Part shown: positions 2,524 to 26,498 of the stretch, in pieces | How the letters are laid out: every line of letters starts with the position of its first letter | Numbering within the stretch: position 1 is the stretch's first letter | DNA from: Candidatus Kaiserbacteria bacterium | Lineage (GTDB): Bacteria; Patescibacteriota; Minisyncoccia; Phycocordibacterales; JABMNX01 | DNA length: 64,000 bases | Assembly (NCBI GenBank): GCA_013204405.1 | Contig: JABMNX010000040.1 | Location: forward strand, 1,046-65,045 | Direction: 5' to 3' | Made by a program: the position numbers and the translations under genes | The notes under the pieces: model-generated | Database searches by the model: none | Told to the model about the DNA's origin: nothing | What the model saw: the letters and a program-made list of their open reading frames with translations, nothing else

Positions 2524-3231
2524 ATGCTCAAGAAACTCATATATATACCAGCACTCGCAATCTTTCTGTTTGCAGGGGTTGTACAGGCGCAAACTGAAGA
2601 TATATTACCTAATGCTGGAATGTTGCCAGATAGTCCTTTTTACTTTCTTGAAAGGTTAACTGAAGGGGTTACCATATTTTTTACATTTGGAGATAAGGCT
2701 AAGGCAGAACGTCTTTTCAAACAGTCAGAGGAACGGTTAGCTGAAGTACAAGCGCTGGTTAATAAAGATAAATCAGAAAAGGCTGAAAAAATAATTGAAC
2801 GATATCAGGAGAAGATAGCTAAGGCTATAGAAAGAGCGAAGCGGGCTCGAGAAAAAAATGAAGATGTTGACGATATCCTCGAACATATCGCAGAGGCAAC
2901 ATCACGCCACCAGGAAGTACTTGGTGATGTGTACAAAAAGGCTCCTGAGGACGCAAAAGAAGCTATCAAACATGCTCTTGAAATGAGTTCAAAAGGGTAT
3001 GACTCAGTTCTTCAAGCTATCTCTGAAGATAGAATAGAGGAAGTACTCAAACGGGTAAAAGTTAGTGTTGAAGAGGCTAAAGAACGCTTGGAAAGCTTAC
3101 GGGAGAGAGGAATCCCAGTTCCAGGACTTAACGTGTACAACAAAGAGGACTTACGTGAGCGTATGGAAGACAGAATAGAGGATGTCGATGAAGAGCAAGA
3201 CATGACAGAAACTGAAGAGATGCAGCGGTAG
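2524..3231 (+). CDS. secreted coiled-coil protein, DUF5667-like
   Basis: Signal peptide MLKKLIYIPALAIFLFAGVVQAQ, then a PDSPFYFLERL motif and a long charged, helical, KE-rich region. Confidence 0.5.
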   Translation: MLKKLIYIPALAIFLFAGVVQAQTEDILPNAGMLPDSPFYFLERLTEGVTIFFTFGDKAKAERLFKQSEERLAEVQALVNKDKSEKAEKIIERYQEKIAKAIERAKRAREKNEDVDDILEHIAEATSRHQEVLGDVYKKAPEDAKEAIKHALEMSSKGYDSVLQAISEDRIEEVLKRVKVSVEEAKERLESLRERGIPVPGLNVYNKEDLRERMEDRIEDVDEEQDMTETEEMQR

Positions 3232-3264
3232 TAGTTAAAAAAATATAGAAAACACGCCACGTAT

Positions 3265-3591
3265 GTGGAGTGTTTTCATTGTAAAAAACAATGCTACTAT
3301 AGTGACATGTTTAAGCGTACTAAAGAGGATTTTAAGTGTGAACACTGCGGAGAGCAGGTAGTTGGTAATGGATATACTAACCATTGCCCAGGGTGTTTGT
3401 GGAGCAAACACGTTGATATTGAGCCTGGGGACCGTGCCTCAGAGTGTGGGGGTATGATGCGTCCTGTTTTATTAGAAGAAAAAAACGGAGGGTATGTAGT
3501 ACTTCATCGCTGTACTGAATGTAGTTTTGAAAAGCATAATAAGCTTCAAAATGAGGACAATTTTGACCCAGAGCAGGTACTCAACAGTTAG
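3265..3591 (+). CDS. RNHCP domain zinc-ribbon protein
   Basis: GYTNHCPGCLWSKHVD, plus CxxC pairs (CFHC, CEHC, CTEC) typical of the RNHCP family. Confidence 0.65.
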   Translation: MECFHCKKQCYYSDMFKRTKEDFKCEHCGEQVVGNGYTNHCPGCLWSKHVDIEPGDRASECGGMMRPVLLEEKNGGYVVLHRCTECSFEKHNKLQNEDNFDPEQVLNS

Positions 3592-7523: not shown

Positions 7524-8123
7524 ATGAACGAGCAAGAATTATTCAGGAAGGTGTATGGTGAGATACTTGATTATGTGGAGGACGATTTACTTTTGAAATG
7601 TGCTAATTGGGGATATGGCGTTCACCAAACACTTCTGGAAAATAAACAGTATCTTATGCAGGTAGAAAAACAAGGGGAACAAAGTGCTCCGTTTATGTAT
7701 GCTGTGGCAACAGCGGTTATCGTCGGCGAGTTTGCTAAACTTGCATATAGAGACCATTTTTCTGACGAAACAAACCTTCTTTTGGACGAACTAGATTTGG
7801 AGTTTGAACAGGTGAGTGGCTTTCTCAATAAGTATATTGGTAAAGACCGTTTTGAAATGCTGGAGGAAATAAATGGTGTTAGTTTGAAGGACATTTGGGC
7901 TACGATAGGTGAGTGGAAAGAGGAGATATATAAATCACTAGTTCATATTTATAAAGAGCAAGGTGAAAAAGAGTCAGACCATAAAATATATACTTCACTA
8001 CTAACTCTGTTTGAGGAAATGGACGAGGAGACAGGAGATATTCTTCCAAGACTAATGGATAAGACTTTTGGTTATCCAGAAATGGAAGTATATGAGTATA
8101 TAAGTAATGGCTTCAAAAACTAA
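7524..8123 (+). CDS. hypothetical acidic protein (199 aa), island gene 1
   Basis: Internal ATG of ORF 7407..8123, starting 5 nt after the previous stop. No recognisable motif. Confidence 0.5.
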   Translation: MNEQELFRKVYGEILDYVEDDLLLKCANWGYGVHQTLLENKQYLMQVEKQGEQSAPFMYAVATAVIVGEFAKLAYRDHFSDETNLLLDELDLEFEQVSGFLNKYIGKDRFEMLEEINGVSLKDIWATIGEWKEEIYKSLVHIYKEQGEKESDHKIYTSLLTLFEEMDEETGDILPRLMDKTFGYPEMEVYEYISNGFKN

Positions 8124-8125
8124 TT

Positions 8126-8437
8126 ATGAAAGTTTCTATTCCAAAAGAATATCTGGGACATTTTCAAGAAGATATAGCATTCCTTACTTGGTGGAAGAAA
8201 CCAACACTACTTTTAATGAATAAAGACGAAAAAGAGTCCTTTCAAGAAACACTGGAGAAGGGTGTGTGGATACGCTTCGCGGAAGGTTGCGAATGGAGTC
8301 CTCTTTGTATGCCTATCGTTGAATTAGTCATAGAAGACGGAATAATTAGCATTCCTACCCCAGAAGACCCTAGAAGGCGTTTACGAGGTAAAAATAGGGT
8401 ATTTACAAGTGATAGAGCTGGTATTGTTCTATCTTAA
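8126..8437 (+). CDS. hypothetical protein (103 aa), island gene 2
   Basis: Starts 3 nt after gene 1. No recognisable motif. Confidence 0.45.
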   Translation: MKVSIPKEYLGHFQEDIAFLTWWKKPTLLLMNKDEKESFQETLEKGVWIRFAEGCEWSPLCMPIVELVIEDGIISIPTPEDPRRRLRGKNRVFTSDRAGIVLS

Positions 8438-8501
8438 TAAGGTGATTTGTCCCTATTGGAGTGTTATAAATTAGTATTAAGTTCGTGATAAAATAGAAGT
8501 A

Positions 8502-9092
8502 ATGACTAAACTAATGACAGTAACAAAGGAAAACGGGGTGACACAACGTAGTGACATCACTCTTACGAAAGAGACTGCTGTTACGCTGTCACAAAACATA
8601 CTTTTGGGCAGGAGTTTATTGACTAGAGAGGCAGAAAAAAAGGGAGTAGTAGAGCTTATTGGAAACGACGGAGGGCTTGTCACTGTGCCGTATCATACAC
8701 TACGTATGTGGATAGTTAGAAAGAATGTTATACCAGAGACAGGCAATGTTTTGAGGGACATTTTGGACGAAGCAAGAGAGGAATATCGTAACATCAAAAA
8801 GAGGGAAATGGACGAAAAACGGGAGGAAGTAATCGACAAGAAGTTTAATAGGGTTATATCTATGAGGACGAAAGAGCCAGCGGTAGGAATGTTCGGAGTG
8901 GTCAAAGACCCTATAACGAAAAAGCCAGTCTACATTGAGAATGTGAAACTGCTCGCAGAGCAAATGAAGAACGTACGCTTTTTGGCAGAGCGTTTATATT
9001 CAAACCGCTATGGAAAAGTTATGAAGAGTGAAAACAAGAACCTAACACTCTCTCTTTCAGACTTACGGAAGTATGAGGAGAGACAAAAATAA
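8502..9092 (+). CDS. hypothetical protein (196 aa), island gene 3
   Basis: Basic, K/E-rich C-terminus. No recognisable motif. Confidence 0.45.
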   Translation: MTKLMTVTKENGVTQRSDITLTKETAVTLSQNILLGRSLLTREAEKKGVVELIGNDGGLVTVPYHTLRMWIVRKNVIPETGNVLRDILDEAREEYRNIKKREMDEKREEVIDKKFNRVISMRTKEPAVGMFGVVKDPITKKPVYIENVKLLAEQMKNVRFLAERLYSNRYGKVMKSENKNLTLSLSDLRKYEERQK

Positions 9093-9139: not shown

Positions 9140-10090
9140 ATGTCAAACAAAAAACTTGGTAAATTAGACAATGTTAAGTTGAGAGACATTTGGGAAAATG
9201 AGGAAAGAGATTTTTCTTCTTGGCTTATTGAACCAGAAAATCTAGCACTTCTTGGTGGCGAGTTAGGTATAGACATTTCTTTTATTGAAAAAGAAGCTGG
9301 TGTTGGAAAGTTTAGTTTGGATATTCTTGCGAAGGAGGCGAACACGAACAGAAATATAATAATTGAAAACCAGCTTGAAATTACAGACCACGACCACTTA
9401 GGTAAAATTATTACCTATGCGGCGGGGCATAATGCTTCCATTGTGATATGGATTTTTAAGGATATTCGGGAAGAACACAGACAAGCTGTTGATTGGCTGA
9501 ATGAAAATACGAATGAGGAGTTATCGTTTTTTGCTGTGAGAGTTGAGGCGTGGAAAATTGACAATTCTGCCCCTGCACCAAAGTTCCATATTATAAGTAG
9601 ACCAAATGAATGGGCTAAAACTGTCAGGAAAAGTTCTGAAGGTGGCAGTTTGGGTAAGACCAAACTTAAACAATTAGATTTTTGGACTAACTTGAAATCG
9701 TATGCAACAGGTAAAGAAGTCACATTATTTAGTAGGACACCTCGTTCACAACATTGGTATGACGTTTCTATTGGGTCGTCTGAAGCCCATATATCACTGA
9801 CTGTGAACACGAGAGACAAGATATTTTCTTGTGAGTTGTGGATAAATAACAATAAGGATATTTTTAATTTTTTGAAGGAACAAAAAGAAAAAATTGAAAA
9901 GGAATTAGACACCTCTCTTGTGTGGAAAGACGAGAATATGATTGCATCAAGAATAATACAACGACGACCTAATTCTGATTTGGATAGTGAGGAAGAAATG
10001 GAGACCTACTATGATTGGTTTATAGAAAGAACAATAGTTTTCCACAAGGTTTTTGGTAAGTTTCTTAATGATTTTAAGAATGAAAGCTAA
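9140..10090 (+). CDS. DUF4268-type protein with an N-terminal PD-(D/E)xK-like (restriction-endonuclease fold) domain
   Basis: The N-domain motif FSLDILAKE...IIIENQLEITDHDHLGKIITYAAG resembles the nuclease-like family commonly co-encoded with type I R-M systems. Confidence 0.5.
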   Translation: MSNKKLGKLDNVKLRDIWENEERDFSSWLIEPENLALLGGELGIDISFIEKEAGVGKFSLDILAKEANTNRNIIIENQLEITDHDHLGKIITYAAGHNASIVIWIFKDIREEHRQAVDWLNENTNEELSFFAVRVEAWKIDNSAPAPKFHIISRPNEWAKTVRKSSEGGSLGKTKLKQLDFWTNLKSYATGKEVTLFSRTPRSQHWYDVSIGSSEAHISLTVNTRDKIFSCELWINNNKDIFNFLKEQKEKIEKELDTSLVWKDENMIASRIIQRRPNSDLDSEEEMETYYDWFIERTIVFHKVFGKFLNDFKNES

Positions 10091-10262
10091 AGATTTTTAT
10101 ACTGCTCGAAACTTGGCAGACAAGTTAGGAGTAAATATAATGACGATTTATCGTTATATAAAAGCGGGTAAACTTAATGCTCACAAAATTGGAAAGGAGT
10201 TTCGCATTGACAAAACCGAGTTTGAGGCATTTTTAATAAAAACAAGAACAAATAAGAGGTAA
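10080..10262 (+). CDS. excisionase-family (TIGR01764-like) helix-turn-helix DNA-binding protein
   Basis: [46 protein letters not shown] matches the Xis-family HTH pattern. An alternative start lies at 10053. Confidence 0.6.
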
Positions 10263-10281: not shown

Positions 10282-11844
10282 ATGGCAAAAGAAAAAAAAC
10301 AGAGAAAAACAGAGAAAAATGGGGACGAGAACTTTGAAGCACAACTATTCAAGGCGGCTGATAAACTCCGAAAAAATATAGACGCTGGCGAATACAAGCA
10401 CATAGTGCTTGGTCTTATTTTCCTTAAATATATCTCCGACGCTTTCGAAGACCATTATAAGAAACTAAAAGAAGGCAAGGGAAAATATAAAGGAGCAGAC
10501 CCAGAAGATAAGGACGAATATAAAGCTGAAAATGTCTTTTGGACACCACCAGAAGCACGTTGGACATATTTGCACTCACGAGCAAAACTTCCAAGCATAG
10601 GAAAGGATTTGGACGCGGCAATGGAAGTAATAGAAAAAGAAAACCCAACCCTTAAAGGTATCTTAACGAAAGATTATGCTAAACCTAACTTGGATAAAAT
10701 TGCGCTTGGTGAATTAGTTGATTTAATTTCTAATATAGCTCTTGGAAAGGAAACAGATAAGTCGAAAGATATTATCGGACGCGTTTATGAATACTTTCTT
10801 GGCGAGTTTGCTTCACTCGAAGGTAAAAAAGGAGGGCAGTTCTATACACCACGAAGCATTGTTGAGTTAATGGTAGGAATGACAGAGCCATTAAAGGGGC
10901 GTGTTTTTGACCCCGCTTGTGGCTCTGGTGGTATGTTTGTAAGCTCTGAAAGGTTTGTGGAAGCACACCAAGGGCGTGTAGCTGATATTTCAATCTATGG
11001 GCAAGAAAGCAACCACACCACCTACCGTCTTTGCCGTATGAACCTTGCTTTGCGTGGCATAGACGGCTCACAGGTATCTTGGAATAGCGAAGGGTCGTTT
11101 TTGAAGGACGCACACCCAGACCTTAAAGCGGACTATATCCTCGCCAACCCACCATTTAATCAAAGTGATTGGGGTCACGACATTTTGAGAAATGATGTCC
11201 GTTGGAAATATGGAGTACCGCCAGAAGGAAATGCGAACTACGCTTGGTTACAACATATGGTTCACCACCTTGCACCAAAGGGAGTTATGGCAACGGTTCT
11301 CTCTAACGGCTCACTTTCTGTTGGCGGAGTTGAGGGTGAAATGAGGAAGAAATTGGTAGACGACGATTTAGTAGATTGTATTGTGGCTTTACCAAAACAA
11401 CTTTTCTACAACACGGGTATTCCTGCTTGTTTATGGTTCATATCACGAAAACGTCTTGGAAATGGCGATAGAAAACGAACAGGAGAAATCCTTTTTATTG
11501 ACGCTTCAGAAAAGGGATTTATGGCAGACAGAACTCACAGAGAGTTTACACAAGAAGACATACAAGAGATTGCTAATACATATCACGAATGGAGGAAGGA
11601 AGGAGGTAAGTATGAAGACATTAAGGGCTTCTGTAAGTCTGCCTCCTTGGAAGAGGTAGAGAAGAATAATTATGCTCTAACTGCTGGGCGATATGTGGGT
11701 ATTGCAGACGAAGAAGACGACGGAGAACCGTTTGAGGATAAAATGAAACGACTAACAGAAACTTTGAAAGAACAAATGTCAGAAGAGGAAGAATTGAATA
11801 AAGAAATTAAAAAACAACTTAAAAGAGTTGGGTTTGATATATGA
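10282..11844 (+). CDS. hsdM: type I restriction-modification N6-adenine DNA methyltransferase subunit M
   Basis: Motif [13 protein letters not shown] and motif [14 protein letters not shown]. 520 aa. HsdM N-terminal region [25 protein letters not shown]. Confidence 0.92.
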
Positions 11845-12476
11845 GTAAAAATCTACCCTACACAGCACCATACAAAGGAGGAGACGCTTTCAACTGCCCA
11901 AACTGCGGAGCATTTGCTAATCAGTCGTGGGCAGAGCACTGGCATAATAACGAGGCAAGTTTGGACGGTCTTACTACGTCAAGGTGCGCGCGGTGCAATG
12001 ATTATGCGGTATGGAAATACGGAAATCTTATATGTCCTCAAACCTCACCCATAGAGCCACCAAGCAATGATTTACCAACAGAAGTAAAGACTGATTACGA
12101 GGAAGCAGCTAAAATTGTTCAGCAATCACCACGAGCTGCGGCAGCTCTTTTACGCTTAGCTATTCAAAAGCTTTGTGTTCACTTAGGAGGAAGCGGAAAG
12201 AAACTTAACAATGATATAGCTAATCTTGTTAAAGAGGGACTGCCAACTAAAATCCAACAAATGCTTGATACGGTTCGTGTTATAGGTAATCACTCTGTCC
12301 ACGCGGGGGTTATAGACTTAAATGATAATCCTCAAACAGCAGAAACTCTTTTCAAACTTGTAAATATAGTTACGGAGAAAATGATTACAGAGCCAAATGA
12401 AATAGACGCTATATACGATAGTTTACCAGAGGACGATAAGGAACAGATTGGTAAAAGAGATAACACAGAAAAGTAA
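11841..12476 (+). CDS. DUF4145 (HEPN-superfamily) protein with an N-terminal zinc ribbon, embedded between hsdM and hsdS
   Basis: CPNCG...CARC zinc ribbon. LRLAIQKL...[13 protein letters not shown] carries an R-x4-H motif typical of DUF4145/HEPN. Overlaps the hsdM stop by 4 nt. Confidence 0.6.
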
Positions 12477-13637
12477 ATGACAAAGACATTATCAAAATGG
12501 AATAGAGATAAATTAGGAAATACTATTGCTCTTGTAAAAAATAGTTGGCGTCCAAGTGACGAGAACATAAAATATGTTGGGTTAGAACATATAAACCAAG
12601 ACGAGCTTTCCTTAAATGGAGTTGGTGCTTCAGAGGGTTTGGCAAGCAATAAGTTTCGTTTTTCAAAGGGTGACATTCTTTTTGGTAAATTAAGACCATA
12701 CTTTCGCAAGGTGGTTAGACCAAGTTTTAATGGGGTGTGTTCGACAGATATTTGGGTTATGCGAGCTAAAGAGGGATATGACCAATCCTATTTGTTTTAT
12801 TTTATGGCTAATCCTGTTCTCATAAGTAAATCTATGGGAGCAAGCACAGGAACTCATATGCCGAGAGCTGATTGGAATTATCTGTCAGGGACAGAGTGGT
12901 ATTTTCCAGAATTATCAGAACAAAAAGAAATTGCGGAAGTACTTTCAAGCTTGGACGATAAAATAGAGCTTTTACAAAAGCAAAGCGAAACATTAGAACA
13001 AATAGCACAAGCACTTTTTAAGGAGTGGTTTTTGGAGTTTAATTTTCCAGATAAAAATGGAAAGCCGTATAAAAAGTCGGGTGGAAAAATGAGTGACAGT
13101 GAATTAGGTGAGATACCAGAGGGGTGGGAGGTTGGTTTTCTTAATGATATTTCGGAGATTACTTCTGGAAAGAGACCAGACAATAGTGTTGATAAAAAAA
13201 CTAAAACACACCAGATTCCTCTTGTTGGAGCTACGAGAATTATGGGGTATGTAGAAGAACCTTTGTATGACGAAGACATATTAGTTATTGGTAGGGTTGG
13301 AACACACGGCGTTATTCAAAGATTTTACGATAGAGTTTGGGTGTCGGACAATGCTTTTGTTATAAAATCAAAAGATTTTGTTTTTTTATACCACGTTCTT
13401 AAAAATATAAATTATGAAAAGTTAAATAAAGGAGCTGTACAGCCACTAATAACCCAGACTGATTTGAAAAATTATAAACTAGCAATGCCAAACGACAATG
13501 TTATGGATTTATTTGGAATGGCTGGTTCAGAAGTTTTCTTAAAATTAAAAGAGAACAGTTTTCAGGTTAACGTTCTTAGTAAAATCAGAGATTTTCTGTT
13601 ACCAAAACTAATGAACGGAGAAGTTCGGGTAAAATAA
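12477..13637 (+). CDS. hsdS: type I restriction-modification specificity subunit S
   Basis: 386 aa in two-TRD arrangement with conserved central and distal repeats (LPSLEEQKEIAEVLSSLDDKIELL-like segment: SEQKEIAEVLSSLDDKIELLQKQ). Confidence 0.88.
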   Translation: MTKTLSKWNRDKLGNTIALVKNSWRPSDENIKYVGLEHINQDELSLNGVGASEGLASNKFRFSKGDILFGKLRPYFRKVVRPSFNGVCSTDIWVMRAKEGYDQSYLFYFMANPVLISKSMGASTGTHMPRADWNYLSGTEWYFPELSEQKEIAEVLSSLDDKIELLQKQSETLEQIAQALFKEWFLEFNFPDKNGKPYKKSGGKMSDSELGEIPEGWEVGFLNDISEITSGKRPDNSVDKKTKTHQIPLVGATRIMGYVEEPLYDEDILVIGRVGTHGVIQRFYDRVWVSDNAFVIKSKDFVFLYHVLKNINYEKLNKGAVQPLITQTDLKNYKLAMPNDNVMDLFGMAGSEVFLKLKENSFQVNVLSKIRDFLLPKLMNGEVRVK

Positions 13638-13646
13638 GACATATGA

Positions 13647-14558
13647 GTGACTATGAAAAATATAAAACTGGCAATAGAGGAAAATGAAAAGTGGACTAAC
13701 TTGCACTCATACATTGAGTTAATAGAACAAAATTGTGATAGTAATCAGGGAGTTGCGCTTGACGGGGCAAAGAGTTTACTTGAAAGTATTTCAAAAACTA
13801 TTTTAGCTGACCGTGGAATTGTTTATGCTCCAGACGCGTCTCTTGGACGCCTTGTAAAAGACGCCGTTAGGTCACTTCCTTCTTTTGATATATTAGATAA
13901 ACAAGACGCTGATGTTGTGGTTCGTATAGTGAGTGGCTTGGAAAGCGTCTCGTCCAGTATTGGTTCTCTCCGAAACAGGCACGGAACGGTAGGACACGGA
14001 AAAGATTTACACGAAGAGCGAGAATTAGATAGACGTCTCGCGAACCTTGCAATTTCTTGTGTGGACAATCTAGCTGGTTTTCTAATGGAAGCACATTCCT
14101 CTGAACCAGACGGAATAAAAAGACTTCGCTATGAAGATTTCTCTGGTTTCAATGAAAGATTTGACGAACAACAGGAGCAAATAGAGATTGAAGGTATCGT
14201 AATAAGTCCAAGTCGCGCTCTTTTCGACCAAGATATTGAAGCGTTCAAGGAGACAGCAATTGCTTTTGGACAAAAAGAGAAGTTGGTTGACGATTTGGAG
14301 ACAAGTTTTAATTTTGTTACCACACACAACATCATTGAAGGTCTATCAAAACACAAAGATTTTTCAGAGGCACAAGTAAGACGTTTAGTATCTATATGCT
14401 CTACTAATAATCAGGTCGAGTGGATTATAGGAGACCCTGATGTTCATAAGTTTTATTCAGGAATCCTCTCAAATTACAGACATTATATGCCAACAGAACA
14501 AGCAGAGTACCTTTTTCTTTTATTAAATGAAAATAAATCTGAAGACCTTGATTTTTAG
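13647..14558 (+). CDS. hypothetical 303-aa protein in the PrrC-equivalent slot (between hsdS and hsdR), with a candidate HEPN-like R-x5-H motif
   Basis: SLRNRHGTVGHGKD at residues 108-121 (nt ~13971). No P-loop. Acidic C-terminal half. Confidence 0.4.
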   Translation: MTMKNIKLAIEENEKWTNLHSYIELIEQNCDSNQGVALDGAKSLLESISKTILADRGIVYAPDASLGRLVKDAVRSLPSFDILDKQDADVVVRIVSGLESVSSSIGSLRNRHGTVGHGKDLHEERELDRRLANLAISCVDNLAGFLMEAHSSEPDGIKRLRYEDFSGFNERFDEQQEQIEIEGIVISPSRALFDQDIEAFKETAIAFGQKEKLVDDLETSFNFVTTHNIIEGLSKHKDFSEAQVRRLVSICSTNNQVEWIIGDPDVHKFYSGILSNYRHYMPTEQAEYLFLLLNENKSEDLDF

Positions 14559-14602: not shown

Positions 14603-17600
14603 ATGACAAAAATATACGAAGACGACATAGAAAAATGGGTTATAGAACTTCTTGAAAAAGAGGGATATGTTTATTTATCCCCACAGGAGCAGGAAGTAGA
14701 AAGACCTGACCTAAAGGAAGTTATCCTAAAAGGACGCTTGGAACAGGCGGTGGCTCGGCTTAACTCCAATATCTCTCCAGAAGCCCGCGAGGAGGCAATA
14801 AAGCGGGTTTTTAACCTCGTTCCACAGCATTTGGTAGAAAGTAATGAGACATTTCAAACAATGCTCACAGACGGCGTGAGTGTGGAAGTCCCAGCCGAGC
14901 AAGGTGGCACTCGTGGAGAAATAGTTCACCTTGTTGATTTTGAAAATCCTACAAACAACGACCTTATAGTAACTAACCAATTTACTATTCCTTATGACCA
15001 TACTAGCAAGAGACCTGACGTAGTACTTTTGATAAATGGGCTTCCTCTTGCCGTAATTGAACTCAAAAATCCTGCTGACGAAAATGCTACGGTTCATAAG
15101 GCATTTACACAACTTCAAAACTACAAAGACGCAGTGCCACAACTTTTTGTATACAACGGTATTTTAATCGCTTCTGACGGATTAGACGGACGGGTAGGTT
15201 CTCTAACTGCTCCGTGGGAGAGATTTTATTTATGGAGAGAGCCAGATAAAAAAGAGAAAGAAAAAGTAAAACCACAAATGGAAACGATTATAAAAGAAAT
15301 GCTTCAGCCAGAAGTTCTTCTTGATTTAATAAGAAACTTTACTGTCTTTGAAAAAGTGAAGAAAGAAGATAAGAAAACAGGAAGAGTTGTTGTAGAGACA
15401 ATTAAAAAAGTGGCGGCGTATCACCAGTATTATGTAGTGAATAAAGCCATTACTTCTACTATAGAGGCGACAAGTGAGAAGGGAGAGCGAAAAATAGGAG
15501 TGGTTTGGCATACACAAGGTTCAGGAAAATCTCTTTCAATGGTTTTTTATACAGGAAAAGCTGTTCTCTCTCTTGGTAATCCAACAGTTGTCGTCATTAC
15601 AGACAGAAATGATTTGGACGACCAACTTTTTGGAACATTTTCAGCAAGCAAAGGACTTTTAAGACAAGAGCCAATTCAGGCAAAAAGTAGAGAGCACTTA
15701 AAAGAACTTTTACAAACAGCAGGTGGTGGAATTATCTTTACGACTATTCAAAAGTTTTTTCCAGAGAACGGAGGCGAAACTTATGATGAGTTAACAGATA
15801 GGAGAAATGTTGTAGTCATTGCAGACGAAGCTCACCGTTCACAATATGGTTTTGCGGCGAGAACTGTATTTAAGGACGAGCAAGCTATTACAAGATATGG
15901 TAATGCAAAGTATTTACGGGACGCTTTACCAAATGCTTCGTTTATTGGCTTTACTGGAACACCTATTGAAAGTGCAGATAAATCTACACCAGCAGTGTTT
16001 GGTAAATATATTGACGTATATGATGTTCAAGACGCGGTAGAGGACGGGGCAACCGTGCCTATTTACTACGAAAGTCGATTAGTAAAAGTTCATTTGCCAG
16101 TAGAAGAGAGTATGAAAATTGACGCGGAAGTTGAGGCGGTTGCCGAAGGGGTAGAGTTTACTGCTAAAGAGAAAGCAAAAGCAAAATGGGCGCAACTAGA
16201 GGCGGTAATTGGTAATCGTGCAAGACTTAAAGAGATTGCCAAAGATTTGGTGGAGCACTACGAAGCACGACAAGAAGTGAATATAGGAAAAGCAATGATA
16301 GTTGCTATGAGTAGGAGGATTGCTGTTGAACTGTATGAAGAAATCATTGAACTTCGTCCTGAATGGCACAACAAGGATTTTGACAAAGGAGCAATAAAGG
16401 TTGTGATGACTGCGAACTCTTCTGACCCAAAAGAGTTCCAGCCACATCATACAAATAAACAAGACAGACAAAGATTAGCTACTCGTTTCAAAGACGCAGA
16501 TAATGAACTAAAAATTGTTGTTGTTTGTGATATGTGGCTTACAGGATTTGATGTGCCAAGTTTACATACTATGTATGTAGATAAGCTAATGCGAGGACAC
16601 AACTTAATGCAAGCGATAGCTCGTGTAAACCGAGTGTTCAGAGATAAAGAAGGGGGACTTATTGTTGATTATATTGGTTTTGCGGCAGATTTACAGAAGG
16701 CACTTGCTATTTATACACAAAGCGGAGGAAAGGGAGACCCTACACTAACCCAACAAAAAGCTATTGAAGTGATGTTGGAGAAATATGAAGTGGTAAAACA
16801 AATGTTCCATAACTTTGATTATCGCCGATACTTTACTGTTGATACACAAGGAAAGCTAGAGGTTATTTTGGAAGCACAGGAACATATTCTTGCACAAGAT
16901 AATAAAGAAGGTAAAAGTGGAAAAGAAAAGAAGGAGGGTATACAAGAAAGATATACACGAGAAGTAACTGCACTCTCAAAAGTATTTGCTATCGCCATTC
17001 CAAGCGAAGAAGCTTTTTCTATACGAGACGAAGTAGCATTTTTTCAAGCCATTAAATCACGTTTAATAAAGTTTGACCCAGACCCAGAAGGCAGACGGGA
17101 AGATATAGATACTGCTATCAGGCAGATTATAGACCAAGCCATTGTTACTGAAGGTGTGGTGGATATTTTTGCAGCTGCAGGTATACAAAAGCCAGACCTT
17201 TCTGTTCTCTCTGACGAGTTCTTATCAGAGGTACAGAATATGAAGCACAGAAACTTGGCAATGGAATTATTGAAACGTGTAATTGACGACGAAATAAAGG
17301 CACGGTTAAGAAAGAACTTTATTCAAGGAAAGAAGTTATCTGAAATGCTTGAAAAGACGCTTAAAAAATACCAAAACAATCTTCTTACTGCTTCTGAAGT
17401 AATTCAAGAGTTGATTAAGTTGGCGAAGGAAATAAAAGACGCAGACGCCCGTGGCGAGGACTTAGGGCTATCAGAGGACGAGATAGCTTTCTATGACGCT
17501 TTGAGTGACAACGGTAGTGCAAAAGAGGTATTGGGAGATAACACACTTCGTGACTTAGCGAGAGTTCTTGTAGAGAAGGTCAGGGGTAGTGCAACGATTG

Positions 17601-17752
17601 ACTGGACTATCAGAGAGAATGTAAGAGCGAAGCTCCGTGTGCTTGTGAAAAGAACACTTAATCAGTTTGGGTATCCGCCAGACAAACAAGCTATTGCCAC
17701 AGAGTTTGTATTGAAGCAAGCAGAACTCTTTGCTGACGAGTGGACTAAATAG
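14603..17752 (+). CDS. hsdR: type I restriction enzyme endonuclease/helicase subunit R
   Basis: 1049 aa. Walker [16 protein letters not shown] box [11 protein letters not shown], motif [10 protein letters not shown], plus a C-terminal HsdR tail. Confidence 0.92.
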
Positions 17753-17872: not shown

Positions 17873-18520
17873 ATGAGCGGCAATCCAATAAATGAATTAG
17901 AAGAAAAGTTCAATGCTTTTATAAACGAAAAAGACGACCATAGATTTTTCCTGCGTCTTTCAAAGTATTTTCAATTTATTGAAGATACATTTCCTTTGGA
18001 CAACATAGTAAAAAAACTTTTCTCTTCTCCTTCTGAACTTTCTATGTTTAAGAATATAGAAGGTTTGTATAATTCTATCGTCCTACATAAATCACCTACT
18101 CGTTTTTCAATTAGTCCAAGTTCTGTGGACGGGTCTGGTATCCGTACTTTACACAAGCGTCTTATTGAAGAAGCGAGAAAATCAGGTCTTGCGAGGGTGT
18201 CTGTAATAGAAAGAAGTGTTGACGGTAGTTATACATTCAACGGGGCGACAATACCTTTTGGCAGAAAAACAATTAAATATCACATATTCGATTATCTATA
18301 TAACTCACCTAGCCACAGAGTTTCTTATGCGGAAATAGATAAATATCTTGTAAGGAATGGGTTTGGTGTAATGAAGAATAACGAAAAAAGAAGTGAAAGA
18401 ATAAGGAGGGCTGTGACAGGTTATCGTGACAAACAAAAAAAGCATTCACAGGTAGGCAATATATCCATATTAGAAATAGAGCACAATTTTGGAGTTAAGC
18501 TGAACAATCCTTTGGTTTGA
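17873..18520 (+). CDS. hypothetical protein (215 aa)
   Basis: No motif recognised. Last gene before the terminator. Confidence 0.45.
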   Translation: MSGNPINELEEKFNAFINEKDDHRFFLRLSKYFQFIEDTFPLDNIVKKLFSSPSELSMFKNIEGLYNSIVLHKSPTRFSISPSSVDGSGIRTLHKRLIEEARKSGLARVSVIERSVDGSYTFNGATIPFGRKTIKYHIFDYLYNSPSHRVSYAEIDKYLVRNGFGVMKNNEKRSERIRRAVTGYRDKQKKHSQVGNISILEIEHNFGVKLNNPLV

Positions 18521-18552
18521 GTTTGTGTTGTAGATAAAAAATAACGAACCTA

Positions 18553-18585
18553 GAAAAGCCCTATGAAAGGGGCTTTTTTGTTTTG
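18553..18585 (+). terminator. rho-independent terminator
   Basis: GAAAAGCCC-tatgaaa-GGGGCTTTT followed by TTTTGTTTTG. Confidence 0.6.
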
Positions 18586-19155: not shown

Positions 19156-20769
19156 ATGAATACACCACAGAAAACAACTAAACTTATTGCTATGTATGCT
19201 CGTGTTTCAACCTCCCACCAAGAGGAAGAACAGACTATAGAAAACCAAATGAACGCAATGAAAGAGTATATTGAAGGTAAGGGGTATACCGTGGTGCGTG
19301 TGTATAAAGACGAAGGGTGGAGTGGTGATAGTCTTATACGCCCAGCTCTTGATAGATTAAGGCAAGACGCTAAAGACAAAATCTGGGAGGGTGTACTTAT
19401 ATATGACCCTGACAGACTGGCTCGTCGATACTCATATCAAGAACTTGTTTCTGACGAACTTAGAGAAGCGGGTATTGAAGTTATGTATGTTACGGTTTCA
19501 GCTCCTAAAAACAATGAAGACAAAATACTTCACGGAGTAAGAGGATTGTTTGCAGAATACGAGAGAGCAAAAATTACTGAAAGATTTAGGTTGGGTAAAC
19601 TACGTAAAATAAAGAATGGTCACATTTTAGTAAGTGAACCGCTGTATGGATATTCTTATGTACCCAAAAATGATAAACAGCACGGTTATTATGAAATTAA
19701 CGAACAAGAAGCTAGTGTTGTGAGGCAGATTTTTTCTTGGGTTGCAGACGAAAAAATGACATTACGAGGAATTGTTAGGAGGTTACAGAAAGAGAATATA
19801 AAACCACGAAAAAGTAAGCGTGGGGTTTGGAGTACAAGCACATTAAGCACAATGCTACGAAATGAGGCATACATTGGCGAGGCACACTGGGGCAGTTCTT
19901 ATGCTGTTATTCCAGAAAAGCCACTGAAGGAGGAAAAATATAAGAAGATAAAGAAAAGTAGTCGGAGAATAAAACCGAAAGAGGAATGGCTAATTATTCC
20001 TGTTCCAGTAATAGTTGGTAAAGATATCTTTGAGAGAACACGAGCACAACTGAAAAGGAACTTTGCGCAGTGTAAAAGAAACAAAAAGAACGATTATCTA
20101 CTGTCCAGTCTTATTTATTGTGAGTGTGGTCGTAGGAGGGCTGGGGAGGGGGCTATGAATGGTAAACATTTATATTATCGTTGTACTGATAGGGTACATA
20201 GTTTCCCGCTAGCACCGACTTGCAAGGAAGGAGGTATAAACGCGAGAGTGTCAGATAAATTAGTGTGGGAGAAAATCTCAAAGCTAATGACTTCACCTGA
20301 ATTATTGAATAAGCAAATTGAAAGGTGGAACAGAAGCCAGAAAACAAAAACTAGTGGGACTATATTTAATGTTGAGTCTTTGGAGACTGAATTAAATAAG
20401 CTAAAGAAACAGGAAGATAGATACAACAAAGCGTATGGTGCTGGAGCATTTAGTGTTGAGCAACTAAAGGAGTACACATCTCCTCTGAAACAGCATATTA
20501 GTGAGGTAGAGATACAAATTGCGGAAACAAGAGAACAAGAAAAAGAGCAAAAGATTAGTAAATTACCAAGTGAAGCAGATGCCAAAGTATTTGCAGAGAG
20601 GGTTAAAGAAAATATAAATAACTTGAACTTTTCCTCAAAACGAGAGATAGTATTGTCTGCGGTGGAGAAAATCGTAGGCACACAAGAAAAGTTATGTGTA
20701 TCTGGGTATATCCCCGTAGATAATTATGTCTCATTCAAAACTAACCATCGGAATCGTTGGACTCCCTAA
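19156..20769 (+). CDS. large serine recombinase (resolvase/invertase N-domain, recombinase domain and zinc-ribbon)
   Basis: IAMYARVSTSHQEE (catalytic Ser), LDRLARR-like DPDRLARRY, and C-x2-C...C cysteines (CECGRR...YYRCTDR). 537 aa. Confidence 0.85.
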   Translation: MNTPQKTTKLIAMYARVSTSHQEEEQTIENQMNAMKEYIEGKGYTVVRVYKDEGWSGDSLIRPALDRLRQDAKDKIWEGVLIYDPDRLARRYSYQELVSDELREAGIEVMYVTVSAPKNNEDKILHGVRGLFAEYERAKITERFRLGKLRKIKNGHILVSEPLYGYSYVPKNDKQHGYYEINEQEASVVRQIFSWVADEKMTLRGIVRRLQKENIKPRKSKRGVWSTSTLSTMLRNEAYIGEAHWGSSYAVIPEKPLKEEKYKKIKKSSRRIKPKEEWLIIPVPVIVGKDIFERTRAQLKRNFAQCKRNKKNDYLLSSLIYCECGRRRAGEGAMNGKHLYYRCTDRVHSFPLAPTCKEGGINARVSDKLVWEKISKLMTSPELLNKQIERWNRSQKTKTSGTIFNVESLETELNKLKKQEDRYNKAYGAGAFSVEQLKEYTSPLKQHISEVEIQIAETREQEKEQKISKLPSEADAKVFAERVKENINNLNFSSKREIVLSAVEKIVGTQEKLCVSGYIPVDNYVSFKTNHRNRWTP

Positions 20770-23495: not shown

Positions 23496-26400
23496 ATGGC
23501 ATCGTATAATCACGAAGAGATAGAAAAAAAATGGCAGAAAAAATGGAAAGAGTCTGGAATTTATGACACGGAGAATCGAGACACTACTAAGGGCAAAGAG
23601 TATGTTTTAGTAGAGTGGCCGTATCCATCAGGCAACCTCCATATTGGTCACTGGTTTGCTTTTGCTGTTGTTGATATATATGTACGAGCAAGACGGATGC
23701 ATGGAAAGCAGGTATTTTTCCCTATGGGGTTTGATGCGTTCGGTCTTCCTGCTGAGAATGCTGCAATAAAAAATAATTTAAATCCAAAAGAGTGGACCGA
23801 TAAAAATATCGCATACATGAAAGGGCAGTTAGAAAGTATGGGGAATGCGTTTTCTTGGGACAAGACAACTAGCTCAACTGATCCTGAATACTATAAGTGG
23901 ACCCAGTGGATGTTCACTAAGTTTTTTGAAAATGATATCGCATACCGAGGTGAAGGAATTGTAAACTGGTGCTCGAGCTGTAACACAGTACTTGCAAATG
24001 AACAGGTACTTCCCGAGGGAGACTGTGAGCGGTGTGGTAATCAGGTTGAAAAGAAAAAGATGGATGAGTGGAAGATGCGTATTACAAAATATGCAGATAG
24101 ACTCATTGATGATTTAGATTCACTCGATTGGCCTGAGTCAATAAAAGAGTCGCAGCGTAATTGGATAGGGCGAAGTGAAGGGGCAGAGATTGATTTTCCG
24201 CTTTCGCTATCTTTATATGGAGGTGAAGTTGTGTTTGCAACAAACAATCATGGGAAGCTCGAGCGAATGCAGAAACTTTTTGATGCTGCAGGGTTTTCAA
24301 TAAAATTAAAGACACCACTTGAAATTGGTGTTAAAGATTTTAATGTAGAAGAAGATAGACCGACACTTGAAGAAAATGCTGAAAAGAAGGCTCGTGCTCT
24401 TGCTGAAAAAACAGACCTTCCTGTACTGGCCGATGACAGCGGGTTCTTTATTGATGGAGAAGAGATTGACCCAGTAACAGTAAAAAGAAACGCACTTGCT
24501 GGACAGTCTGAAGAAGGTATGACTATCGAAGAGGTAGGAAATTTAATGATTACATACTATCAAAATGTCGCTAAAGCTCGAGGAGGGTCTGTTGATGCTG
24601 AATGGCATAATGCTTTTTGTCTAATTACATCAAAAAAAATAGTGTCACACACACAAACCACTCGTCCTGTTACACTTACAGACGAACCAAAAGGTGTAAT
24701 GAATCCATACCTACCACTTAGGTCTCTGTACATATCAAAAGTGACTGGGAAACACGTGCTTTTACAAAGTGATGAAGAGGAACTCGAAGAATTAAATCCA
24801 ATTATTAAAGGAATACAAAATTTATTTACACCATCGATCAAAGTGTTCACCACGCGTCCAGACACACTTTATGGAGCTACATACATGGTACTTGCTCCAG
24901 AACATCCGCTTGTAGAGAAATTTAAGGGTGTGGTATCTAATTGGGACGAAATAGAAGCGTATCAAAAAGAAACTGCAACAAAAGACGACATAGTTCGGAC
25001 GACAGAAAATAAAGAAAAGACCGGAGTCAAACTTGAGGGAGTCCTTGCTATTAACCCAGCAAACCAAGAAGAAATTCCAGTTTTTATAGCAGACTACGTA
25101 TTATCTGGATATGGTACAGGTGCAATCATGGCAGTTCCAGCGCATGATGAGCGAGATTTTGCTTTCGCGAAGAAATTTAAACTTGCTACTAAAGAGGTTG
25201 TTTCAAACAAGCTCACAGACGAAAATATTTTTACTGGAGAGGGTACTCTTATAAACTCTGGAGAATTTGATGGACTTACAAGCGAGGAAGCAAAAGGAAA
25301 AATAACAAAAAAAGTTGGGGGAGAAATGAAATCAACGTATAGGCTTCGCGACTGGTCTGTTGGCCGTCAGCGATATTGGGGAGTTCCTATTCCTATTGTG
25401 TATGACAAGGAAGGAAAGGCTCACCCTGTTCCAGAAAAACATCTTCCATGGCTTTTACCAGAAGATGTTGACTTTAGGCCTACAGGAGAGCCACCATTAG
25501 CTAAAAGTAAAGAGCTTCTTGAACGAACAGAAAAGATATTTGGAGATGGCTGGACCCCAGAGGTTGAGACCATGGACACATTTGTTGATTCTTCATGGTA
25601 TTTTCTTCGCTATATAGATAATGAAAACGGCACAGAGTTTTCTTCAATGGAGAAGCAAAAAGAGTGGATGCCGATAGATATTTACTTCGGCGGTGCTGAG
25701 CATACAACAATGCATCTTCTTTATTCTCGTTTCTGGCAAAAGGTTCTTTTTGATTTAGGGCTTGTAACAGAGAGTGAGCCGTATAAGAGGCGAATTAATC
25801 GTGGACTCGTTCTCGGACCTGACGGCAACAAGATGAGTAAGTCAAAAGGAAACGTTATTGATCCTGATGAACAAGTGAAACGTCTCGGGTCTGATGCTGT
25901 AAAGATGTATTTAGCATTTATGGGACCGTACGGAGAAACAACTAACTACCCGTGGGACCTCGGTGGCATTGTTGGAATTCGTCGTTTCCTAGAACGAGTA
26001 GATAAGATGATTGATAAAGAAAATATAATGGATTCCGAAGACGTACATCTTGAGAGGCATTTACATCAGACAATTAAGAAAGTGGGAGGAGACATTGAGT
26101 TATATAAATTTAATACAGCAATATCTCAACTCATGATTTTTCTTAATCAAATGCAGACTCTTAAGGTAAGTAAAAATACACTCGAAATATTCCTTAGACT
26201 TCTTGCTCCATTTGCTCCACATCTCACAGAAGAACTCTGGGAGAGGCTGGGAAATATGACCTCAATCCACCTAGAAGAATGGCCCGAATTTGATGAATCA
26301 AAGCTTGTCTCTGACACAGTATCCATTGCTGTGCAGATACATGGGAAGGTGAGGGGGTTAGTAGAAAGTCCTTCTGGGTCAAGCGAAGACGAGGTTCTTG

Positions 26401-26498
26401 CTTTGGTTCGAAAGGATGAGGGTCTTTCTAAGTGGATAGAGGGGGAGCCAAAGAGGGTGATATATGTTGAGAATAAGCTTATTAATCTAGTGTTTTAA
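23496..26498 (+). CDS. leuS: leucyl-tRNA synthetase carrying a ~210-aa insertion with a Ham1/RdgB (ITPase)-like domain
   Basis: HIGH motif PSGNLHIGH. ZN-1 knuckle CSSC...CERC. NWIGRSEGAEIDF. T-rich VFTTRPDTLYGATYMVLAPEH. Editing motif GTGAIMAVPAHDERD. KMSKS motif NKMSKSKGN. Between GAEIDFPL and VFTTRPDTL lie residues ~237-447 (nt ~24204-24837). In that insert, EVVFATNNHGK, EEDRPTLEENAEKKAR, LPVLADDSG and EWHNAFCLI align to RdgB/Ham1 motifs. Confidence 0.9.
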   Translation: MASYNHEEIEKKWQKKWKESGIYDTENRDTTKGKEYVLVEWPYPSGNLHIGHWFAFAVVDIYVRARRMHGKQVFFPMGFDAFGLPAENAAIKNNLNPKEWTDKNIAYMKGQLESMGNAFSWDKTTSSTDPEYYKWTQWMFTKFFENDIAYRGEGIVNWCSSCNTVLANEQVLPEGDCERCGNQVEKKKMDEWKMRITKYADRLIDDLDSLDWPESIKESQRNWIGRSEGAEIDFPLSLSLYGGEVVFATNNHGKLERMQKLFDAAGFSIKLKTPLEIGVKDFNVEEDRPTLEENAEKKARALAEKTDLPVLADDSGFFIDGEEIDPVTVKRNALAGQSEEGMTIEEVGNLMITYYQNVAKARGGSVDAEWHNAFCLITSKKIVSHTQTTRPVTLTDEPKGVMNPYLPLRSLYISKVTGKHVLLQSDEEELEELNPIIKGIQNLFTPSIKVFTTRPDTLYGATYMVLAPEHPLVEKFKGVVSNWDEIEAYQKETATKDDIVRTTENKEKTGVKLEGVLAINPANQEEIPVFIADYVLSGYGTGAIMAVPAHDERDFAFAKKFKLATKEVVSNKLTDENIFTGEGTLINSGEFDGLTSEEAKGKITKKVGGEMKSTYRLRDWSVGRQRYWGVPIPIVYDKEGKAHPVPEKHLPWLLPEDVDFRPTGEPPLAKSKELLERTEKIFGDGWTPEVETMDTFVDSSWYFLRYIDNENGTEFSSMEKQKEWMPIDIYFGGAEHTTMHLLYSRFWQKVLFDLGLVTESEPYKRRINRGLVLGPDGNKMSKSKGNVIDPDEQVKRLGSDAVKMYLAFMGPYGETTNYPWDLGGIVGIRRFLERVDKMIDKENIMDSEDVHLERHLHQTIKKVGGDIELYKFNTAISQLMIFLNQMQTLKVSKNTLEIFLRLLAPFAPHLTEELWERLGNMTSIHLEEWPEFDESKLVSDTVSIAVQIHGKVRGLVESPSGSSEDEVLALVRKDEGLSKWIEGEPKRVIYVENKLINLVF

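Follow-up and report, generated by a model that had tools for sequence, protein, structure and literature searches.

Results

A type I restriction-modification cassette with two embedded HEPN genes

The window, by which we mean the whole 64,000-nt stretch of DNA analysed here, carries a type I restriction-modification (R-M) operon on its forward strand. A small HTH_17 gene at the head of the cassette (10080-10262, +; 60 aa; Pfam HTH_17, E 1.3e-11) is followed by hsdM (10282-11844, +; HsdM_N plus N6_Mtase, E 7e-112), a HEPN gene (11841-12476, +), hsdS (12477-13637, +; Methylase_S in two stretches), the gene under study, here called X (13647-14558, +), and hsdR (14603-17752, +; HSDR_N, SWI2_SNF2, T1R_D3-like and T1RH-like_C). 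The gene between hsdM and hsdS is a second HEPN gene besides X. Its 211-aa product consists of a Zn-ribbon-like N-terminus plus DUF4145 (Pfam 3.5e-18) and is a PD-T7-4 homolog (full-length PADLOC match, E 2.4e-82); its first bases overlap the stop of hsdM, and hsdS begins directly after its own stop. An HTH_17 gene also directly precedes hsdM in a Planctomycetota cassette (L108, 2843-3073). In the mobile R-M unit this gene could act as a controller or as a regulator of the excisionase type.

In a scan for consensus matches only, the best promoter-like match (10113-10141) lies inside the HTH_17 gene, no terminator-like site was found on the + strand between hsdS and hsdR, and the strongest terminator-like hairpin (18551-18580, +; a 12-bp stem plus T-run) is the probable end of the transcription unit. 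Between hsdR and this hairpin lies a 215-aa ORF (17873-18520, +), probably co-transcribed with the R-M operon, which had no match in Pfam, PADLOC, NCBIfam or PHROGs and no homolog in the other cassettes by tblastn.

Housekeeping genes on both sides (an ATP synthase subunit at 127-927; YchF, LeuRS and YceG from 20.7 kb) bound an island of roughly 17 kb. At its edge is a large serine recombinase gene (19156-20769, +; Resolvase/Recombinase/Zn_ribbon_recom), whose last 44 nt run into the housekeeping gene ychF (start at 20726). Large serine recombinases also flank the cassettes L004 (215-1846), L012/13 (L012 2544-4142) and L108 (10211-11791). This recurrence in several unrelated genomes suggests that the R-M/Abi_C cassette and the serine recombinase form one mobile unit, and the window is correctly annotated as a mobile type I R-M cassette with two different embedded HEPN genes. 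Just upstream of the cassette, a 316-aa DUF4268 protein (9140-10090, +; PADLOC PDC-S11 over the full length, E 4.5e-115) is probably the product of another defence gene of the island. Beyond the island, the 1000-aa leucyl-tRNA synthetase ORF (23496-26498, +) has a match to Ham1p_like (ITPase family) at aa 245-321 (Pfam E 8e-15), which may be an inserted domain.

Gene X encodes a member of the Abi_C/AbiJ family

Gene X encodes 303 aa from a GTG at 13647, or 301 aa from an in-frame ATG at 13653, which is the start used in public gene calls. It begins 9-15 nt 3' of the hsdS end and stops 44 nt 5' of hsdR. A preliminary description of this DNA had placed a 303-aa ORF between hsdS (ending at 13637) and hsdR (starting at 14603), in the slot that prrC occupies in its own type I operon, and both the ORF and its embedding in a type I operon are confirmed by ORF and Pfam analysis. 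The same description had called the gene unknown and without recognisable homology, and this did not hold. X scores 51.6 bits (E 1e-13) against Pfam Abi_C (PF14355), for which the gathering threshold is 24 bits, and the match at aa 68-147 covers profile positions 2-82 of 83. An identical protein at NCBI is named 'abortive infection family protein [Candidatus Kaiserbacteria bacterium]'. PF14355 is likewise carried by 19 of 19 close homologs and by the top 120 listed matches of a search seeded with a short form of the protein. X is a member of the known Abi_C/AbiJ HEPN family, a recognised passenger of type I R-M operons. Judged by homologs conserved across phyla and by a confident predicted fold (full-length model, mean pLDDT 82), gene X is real and not a chance ORF.

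The lack of an ATPase P-loop, which had been noted from the letters, was borne out: no ATPase family was found in X with Pfam, NCBIfam or PADLOC. The peptide 'GTVGHGKD' resembles a P-loop by chance; its last residue is D, and K119 is variable in homologs. No antitoxin or nucleotidyltransferase (NTase) gene lies beside X in the window operon, where its neighbours are hsdS and hsdR. We thus rejected a HEPN-MNT type II toxin-antitoxin system, because there is no adjacent minimal nucleotidyltransferase gene.

X carries conserved HEPN motifs

The HEPN domain spans aa 1-152 (13647-14102, +) and is predicted to fold as an all-alpha, up-and-down helical bundle, as HEPN proteins do. Within it, SLRNRHGTVGHGKD contains the predicted RNase active-site motif R109-N110-x6-H117-G118 (13971-14000, +; R109 codon at 13971, H117 codon at 13995), which was delimited by conservation. 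All four residues are invariant in an alignment of 19 X sequences. When this set was enlarged to 47 with distant short forms of other phyla and with 50 %-identity representatives, R109 was kept in 46/47, N110 in 45/47, H117 in 46/47 and G118 in 45/47, and the RN-x6-HG spacing was constant throughout. The other HEPN motif, Ex3[KR], is represented by E46-x3-K50 (13782-13796, +), likewise found by conservation: E46 is kept in 46/47, and position 50 is K in 42/47 plus R in two (K or R in 44/47).

Both motifs follow definitions (Rx4-6H; Ex3[KR]) given by Anantharaman et al. (PMC3710099). The R-to-H gap in X is seven residues; this exceeds the canonical Rx4-6H by one and fits the range of RN-X(2-6)-H given for Abi_C proteins (PMC13590631). 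The Abi_C protein SadR of S. aureus has been shown to act as an RNase on ssRNA and total RNA, and the R, N and H of its RNEYGDAH motif are essential for both RNase activity and phage defence (PMC13590631). The loop around H117 is poorly modelled in X (pLDDT <50 at 116-122).

These data bear out the earlier guess of a HEPN-type protein, in the helical-bundle fold returned by structure prediction as well as in the conserved RN-x6-H and Ex3K motifs. They move its catalytic arginine. The preliminary description had proposed R111-x5-H117; the peptide is present and H117 is conserved, but position 111 is T, E, S, K or D in homologs, and the invariant arginine is R109. Its interpretation is therefore supported in part: the kind of protein was right, and the label 'unknown' and the chosen arginine were wrong.

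A conserved mid-module and a mobile tail follow the HEPN domain

No Pfam family matched X over aa 155-303, but conservation delimits a family-specific mid-module at aa ~160-205 (14124-14261, +). Its conserved positions are Y162, F168-N169, D173, S189, L192, D196 and A199-Y/F200, with a beta-hairpin at aa 179-186. N169, S189 and D196 are kept in 47/47, so that the mid-module is conserved more strictly than the active site. It is present in long forms, in short forms and in a non-HEPN variant, P0073. The mid-module is modelled with pLDDT 76-81 in full-length X and with only 47-66 when the HEPN domain is left out, a fall which suggests that it packs on the HEPN domain.

The remainder of the protein (aa ~205-297; 14259-14537, +) is a C-terminal HEAT/ARM-like helical tail that behaves as a mobile accessory domain. 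Within the family it is of the window type, is replaced by a repeat-rich alternative, or is absent, as in short forms of ~210-245 aa. The same ~90-aa HEAT-like tail occurs in proteins that carry a PIN_12 nuclease domain (hhalign 99.7 %). Genes for these PIN_12+tail proteins were near type I genes in 3 of 30 loci (each at least 5 kb), and there downstream of hsdR; since such proximity is rare, the tail is not an R-M-specific element. The PADLOC system PDC-S34 was considered for X and rejected: only aa 203-279 match (profile positions 296-372 of 384), and the tail domain is the sole common part.

Two side observations concern this tail. The best tail match to PDC-S34 (76 bits) is P0067, a 531-aa protein with no Pfam match in which an RNx3H HEPN-like motif ('YTRNIIVHNQG') precedes this HEAT-like tail; PDC-S34 itself may be a HEPN+tail protein. 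At locus L046, a PIN_12+tail gene is closely followed by an Abi_C-like HEPN coding region (3087-3482; match to X aa 16-150), which shows that the PIN_12 and Abi_C-like nuclease types can also be neighbours.

X is locked into type I R-M operons across phyla

All contexts of X homologs that are readable on both sides are type I R-M operons with X directly after hsdS, which agrees with the hsdS-X-hsdR synteny that the preliminary description had proposed to look for. These comprise the window, nine distinct metagenomic contexts, eight species-level genomes (Falkowbacteria, Chitinophagaceae, Methylococcaceae, Bacteroidales, Nitrospirota, an unclassified bacterium, Ignavibacteriaceae and Cyclobacteriaceae), a Paraburkholderia plasmid, and a Planctomycetota chromosome plus related contigs. 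In the cultured Paraburkholderia sp. FT54, the X cassette sits on a 30-kb plasmid (NZ_CP134199.1) and the X protein (WP_310819800.1) has every motif. The cassette layout also recurs, with a small HTH_17 gene, hsdM, hsdS, X and hsdR, and a large serine recombinase nearby.

The packing is tight. The gap from hsdS to X is -8 to +31 nt in 16 of the 16 loci with hsdS visible; from X to hsdR it is -23 to +44 nt in 11 loci, three of them with 4-nt overlaps, while the remaining loci have one to three extra genes, or a disrupted hsdR, between the two. The position of X next to hsdR is operonic and probably translationally coupled. X also co-diverges with HsdR and HsdM: pairwise identities of X and HsdR are correlated with Mantel r 0.67, a value reached in 0 of 5000 permutations, and those of X and HsdM with r 0.67-0.74, compared with 0.84 for HsdR and HsdM. 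One exception was found in Saccharibacteria (L022), where GlmS and an MFS transporter on the other strand come after X, with no downstream hsdR; the upstream side of this X is cut off by the contig end.

The search seeded with the Paraburkholderia short form returned at least 734 clusters. Many of these matches are ~80 % identical between Burkholderia pseudomallei, Paraburkholderia, other Betaproteobacteria and Planctomycetota; 'abortive infection family protein' is the name that they routinely bear. The wider family is therefore common, already annotated and horizontally mobile. No X copies were found on viral contigs or in phage genomes. Unrelated defence genes are inserted in the same operons, among them DUF4145/PD-T7-4, GmrSD_N, Bro-N, SLFN_AlbA_2 and NTase/HEPN-like genes. 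Two of the loci deserve separate mention. In L002, the gene that comes directly after the X homolog and before hsdR (8064-8849) has a weak AbiJ_NTD4 match (E 3.9e-4, below cutoff) and may encode an AbiJ N-terminal sensor domain as a separate gene beside a HEPN 'solo'. In L005 (6016-7978), an NTase_sub_bind (HEPN-like) gene and an HsdS with an N-terminal Polbeta/NTP_transf_2 domain lie between hsdM and X, an arrangement resembling an MNT-HEPN-type pair in partial fusion with the specificity subunit.

A slot occupant without a HEPN domain

Three kinds of occupant were found in the slot: HEPN+mid-module+tail, HEPN+mid-module, and the variant P0073, known from three near-identical short contigs (L105-L107). 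The N-terminal half of P0073 is hydrophobic, possibly membrane-spanning, and is not HEPN; it is followed by the mid-module and then the tail. The gene (L105, 657-1556) comes from a UGA-recoded organism, in which UGA is read as sense, and is preceded by a 184-aa, very hydrophobic ORF. Nine nucleotides 3' of it begins a gene for an HsdR N-terminus (33 % identity over 69 aa, E 4e-10, pairwise). The mid-module is the element common to all three kinds, a correlation that for P0073 is drawn from three near-identical short contigs.

Discussion

A probable defence RNase functionally tied to its R-M operon

We lean towards the reading that X is a defence RNase functionally tied to the R-M system. On this reading it is an integral accessory gene of a mobile cassette that runs from HTH through hsdM, a PD-T7-4-like HEPN gene, hsdS, X and hsdR to a serine recombinase further on. 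By the precedent of SadR, other HEPN toxins and PrrC, X would be a metal-independent endoribonuclease and, as with other HEPN enzymes, would probably work as a dimer. From the same family knowledge, it would cleave cellular and/or phage RNA, stop translation and abort the infection, and would thereby back up DNA restriction. Less certainly, since no antitoxin gene and no ATPase is there to silence X, either the Hsd complex may do so through direct contact, or the C-terminal region of X itself. The mid-module would then be the best candidate contact surface with the Hsd complex. In members that have the HEAT-like tail, a phage or host factor could plausibly bind there. Release might occur when a phage disables, overwhelms or bypasses restriction, or when a phage component is bound by the tail. 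The least certain step of this scheme is that the R-M complex physically masks X, as proposed by analogy. The seven-residue R-to-H gap and the low model confidence of the H117 loop also weigh against the scheme.

The same observations have to be weighed against an autonomous enzyme. X could be a single-gene Abi RNase of the AbiJ/SadR kind that merely rides in the R-M operon, with promoter and mobility in common with it and no physical or regulatory link to Hsd, its own C-terminal region sensing infection and gating the HEPN domain. Co-divergence and tight packing are equally expected from simple co-inheritance of a mobile operon, and characterised Abi_C proteins act alone; that SadR and lactococcal AbiJ work without an R-M system counts against a tie to restriction. 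The tail is common to stand-alone PIN_12 proteins that are rarely near R-M genes (3/30 loci), type I operons here host many different defence inserts, and L022 has no downstream hsdR. However, across very distant phyla the slot of X stays fixed directly after hsdS and before hsdR instead of shifting about the island, and X can overlap each of its two neighbours at a start or stop codon. Tail-less short forms, which have no obvious sensor, keep the slot, and the non-HEPN variant, with only mid-module and tail in common, is also found 9 nt upstream of an hsdR. On balance we consider an autonomous enzyme, the main rival, somewhat unlikely.

Two further roles were considered. As an addiction or stabilisation toxin of the mobile R-M/serine-recombinase cassette, X would be unmasked as the Hsd complex decays after cassette loss and would kill the segregant, with phage defence as a secondary effect. 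The cassette is mobile, with a serine recombinase in the window, L004, L012/13 and L108 and a plasmid location in Paraburkholderia, and ~80 % identical copies in Burkholderia and Planctomycetota indicate horizontal transfer. Yet R-M systems alone already give post-segregational killing, and X would need to outlive the Hsd proteins; sequence alone cannot separate this role from that of a defence RNase tied to R-M, and we hold it to be very unlikely. There is a still smaller chance that X is no toxin at all. It would then have a regulatory task, as an RNase or an RNA-binding subunit, and would tune hsd mRNA (for example to set the HsdR:HsdM ratio while the cassette becomes established in a new host) or modulate restriction in some other way. 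Its location immediately upstream of hsdR, often with translational coupling, would suit such a role, and some HEPN proteins are described in PMC3710099 as non-toxic RNA-binding or RNA-processing factors. Against it, many type I operons with the same type of HsdR work in the absence of X, the closest relative that has been characterised is a non-specific defence RNase, and the replacement of HEPN by a hydrophobic N-terminus fits interchangeable toxic effectors better than a dedicated regulator.

The three kinds of slot occupant raise a bolder idea, to which we give little credence at present: that the ~45-aa mid-module docks the type I R-M complex and lets interchangeable effectors plug in and be held latent. 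The docking partner would most plausibly be HsdR, whose gene follows. In most members the effector may be the Abi_C HEPN RNase, and in P0073 its place may be taken by the hydrophobic N-terminus of membrane type. Were this true, the PrrC principle would be generalised to a widespread, ATPase-free, modular family of 'R-M-guarded effectors'. To our knowledge, PrrC/EcoprrI is essentially the only R-M-coupled HEPN nuclease for which the coupling has been shown experimentally. Our literature search found no experimental tests of the R-M-linked HEPN nucleases predicted in 2013, including R-M-embedded Abi_C proteins. With 210-300 aa, neither ATPase nor antitoxin, and a fixed place beside hsdR in lineages as far apart as CPR bacteria and Burkholderia, the X family is a convenient test system. 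Its cultured Paraburkholderia and Burkholderia orthologs can be used to ask whether keeping watch over a latent RNase is common among type I R-M complexes.

Comparison with known systems

By HMM, AbiJ (Lactococcus, Abi-859) and SadR (Staphylococcus aureus) belong to the same HEPN sub-family as X and have the same RN...HG motif; AbiJ is predicted and SadR has been shown (PMC13590631) to be a defence RNase. In these proteins, Abi_C is C-terminal, usually behind an AbiJ-NTD sensor, whereas in X the HEPN domain is N-terminal and is followed by the mid-module and HEAT-like tail. The spacer of X is RN-x6-H, compared with the commoner RN-x5-H. AbiJ and SadR act alone, whereas X is tied in position to a type I R-M operon. 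The PADLOC AbiJ model gave a partial, weak match to X (24 bits, E 5.9e-6), and we rejected a canonical AbiJ since no AbiJ-NTD was detected and the Abi_C region is in the N-terminal half. X corresponds to the 'no NTD' class of AbiJ proteins, extended at its C-terminus.

Anantharaman et al. 2013 (PMC3710099) identify AbiJ as a HEPN family, link at least 16 HEPN clades to R-M systems, and describe AbiJ-family HEPN 'solos', which have no N-terminal domain, inside R-M operons as proposed second-line suicidal RNases. X belongs to this R-M-embedded category as set out there. The main text of PMC3710099 holds no description that we found of the mid-module, the C-terminal tail or the strict hsdS-X-hsdR position. 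In the parts of the literature consulted, we likewise found no earlier description of the effector-swapped variant, the shared HEAT-like tail or the mid-module, none of which we claim as new.

The PD-T7-4-type gene at 11841-12476 is likewise a HEPN defence gene embedded in the operon of X, between hsdM and hsdS, but its HEPN family and architecture differ from those of X. PD-T7-4 has been validated as a single-gene system in E. coli. The PIN_12+tail proteins and PDC-S34 have the HEAT-like C-terminal domain in common with X and a PIN nuclease instead of HEPN. Unlike X, the PIN_12+tail proteins have no convincing mid-module and are not R-M-linked (3/30 loci).

The closest parallel in position is PrrC, the tRNA-Lys anticodon nuclease of EcoprrI, which occupies the same hsdS-hsdR slot of a type I system and belongs to the same nuclease superfamily, HEPN. 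PrrC has an N-terminal ABC-type ATPase and a C-terminal HEPN domain of another family, whereas X has no ATPase and an N-terminal Abi_C HEPN domain. X was therefore rejected as a PrrC/RloC member, having no ABC ATPase, another HEPN sub-family and the opposite domain order. For PrrC, masking by R-M and activation by Stp are experimentally shown; for X, masking by the Hsd complex is a proposal by analogy. What the two may have in common is the logic put forward for PrrC in PMC3710099, an RNase held latent and used when restriction fails, and X would follow this PrrC logic without the PrrC ATPase.
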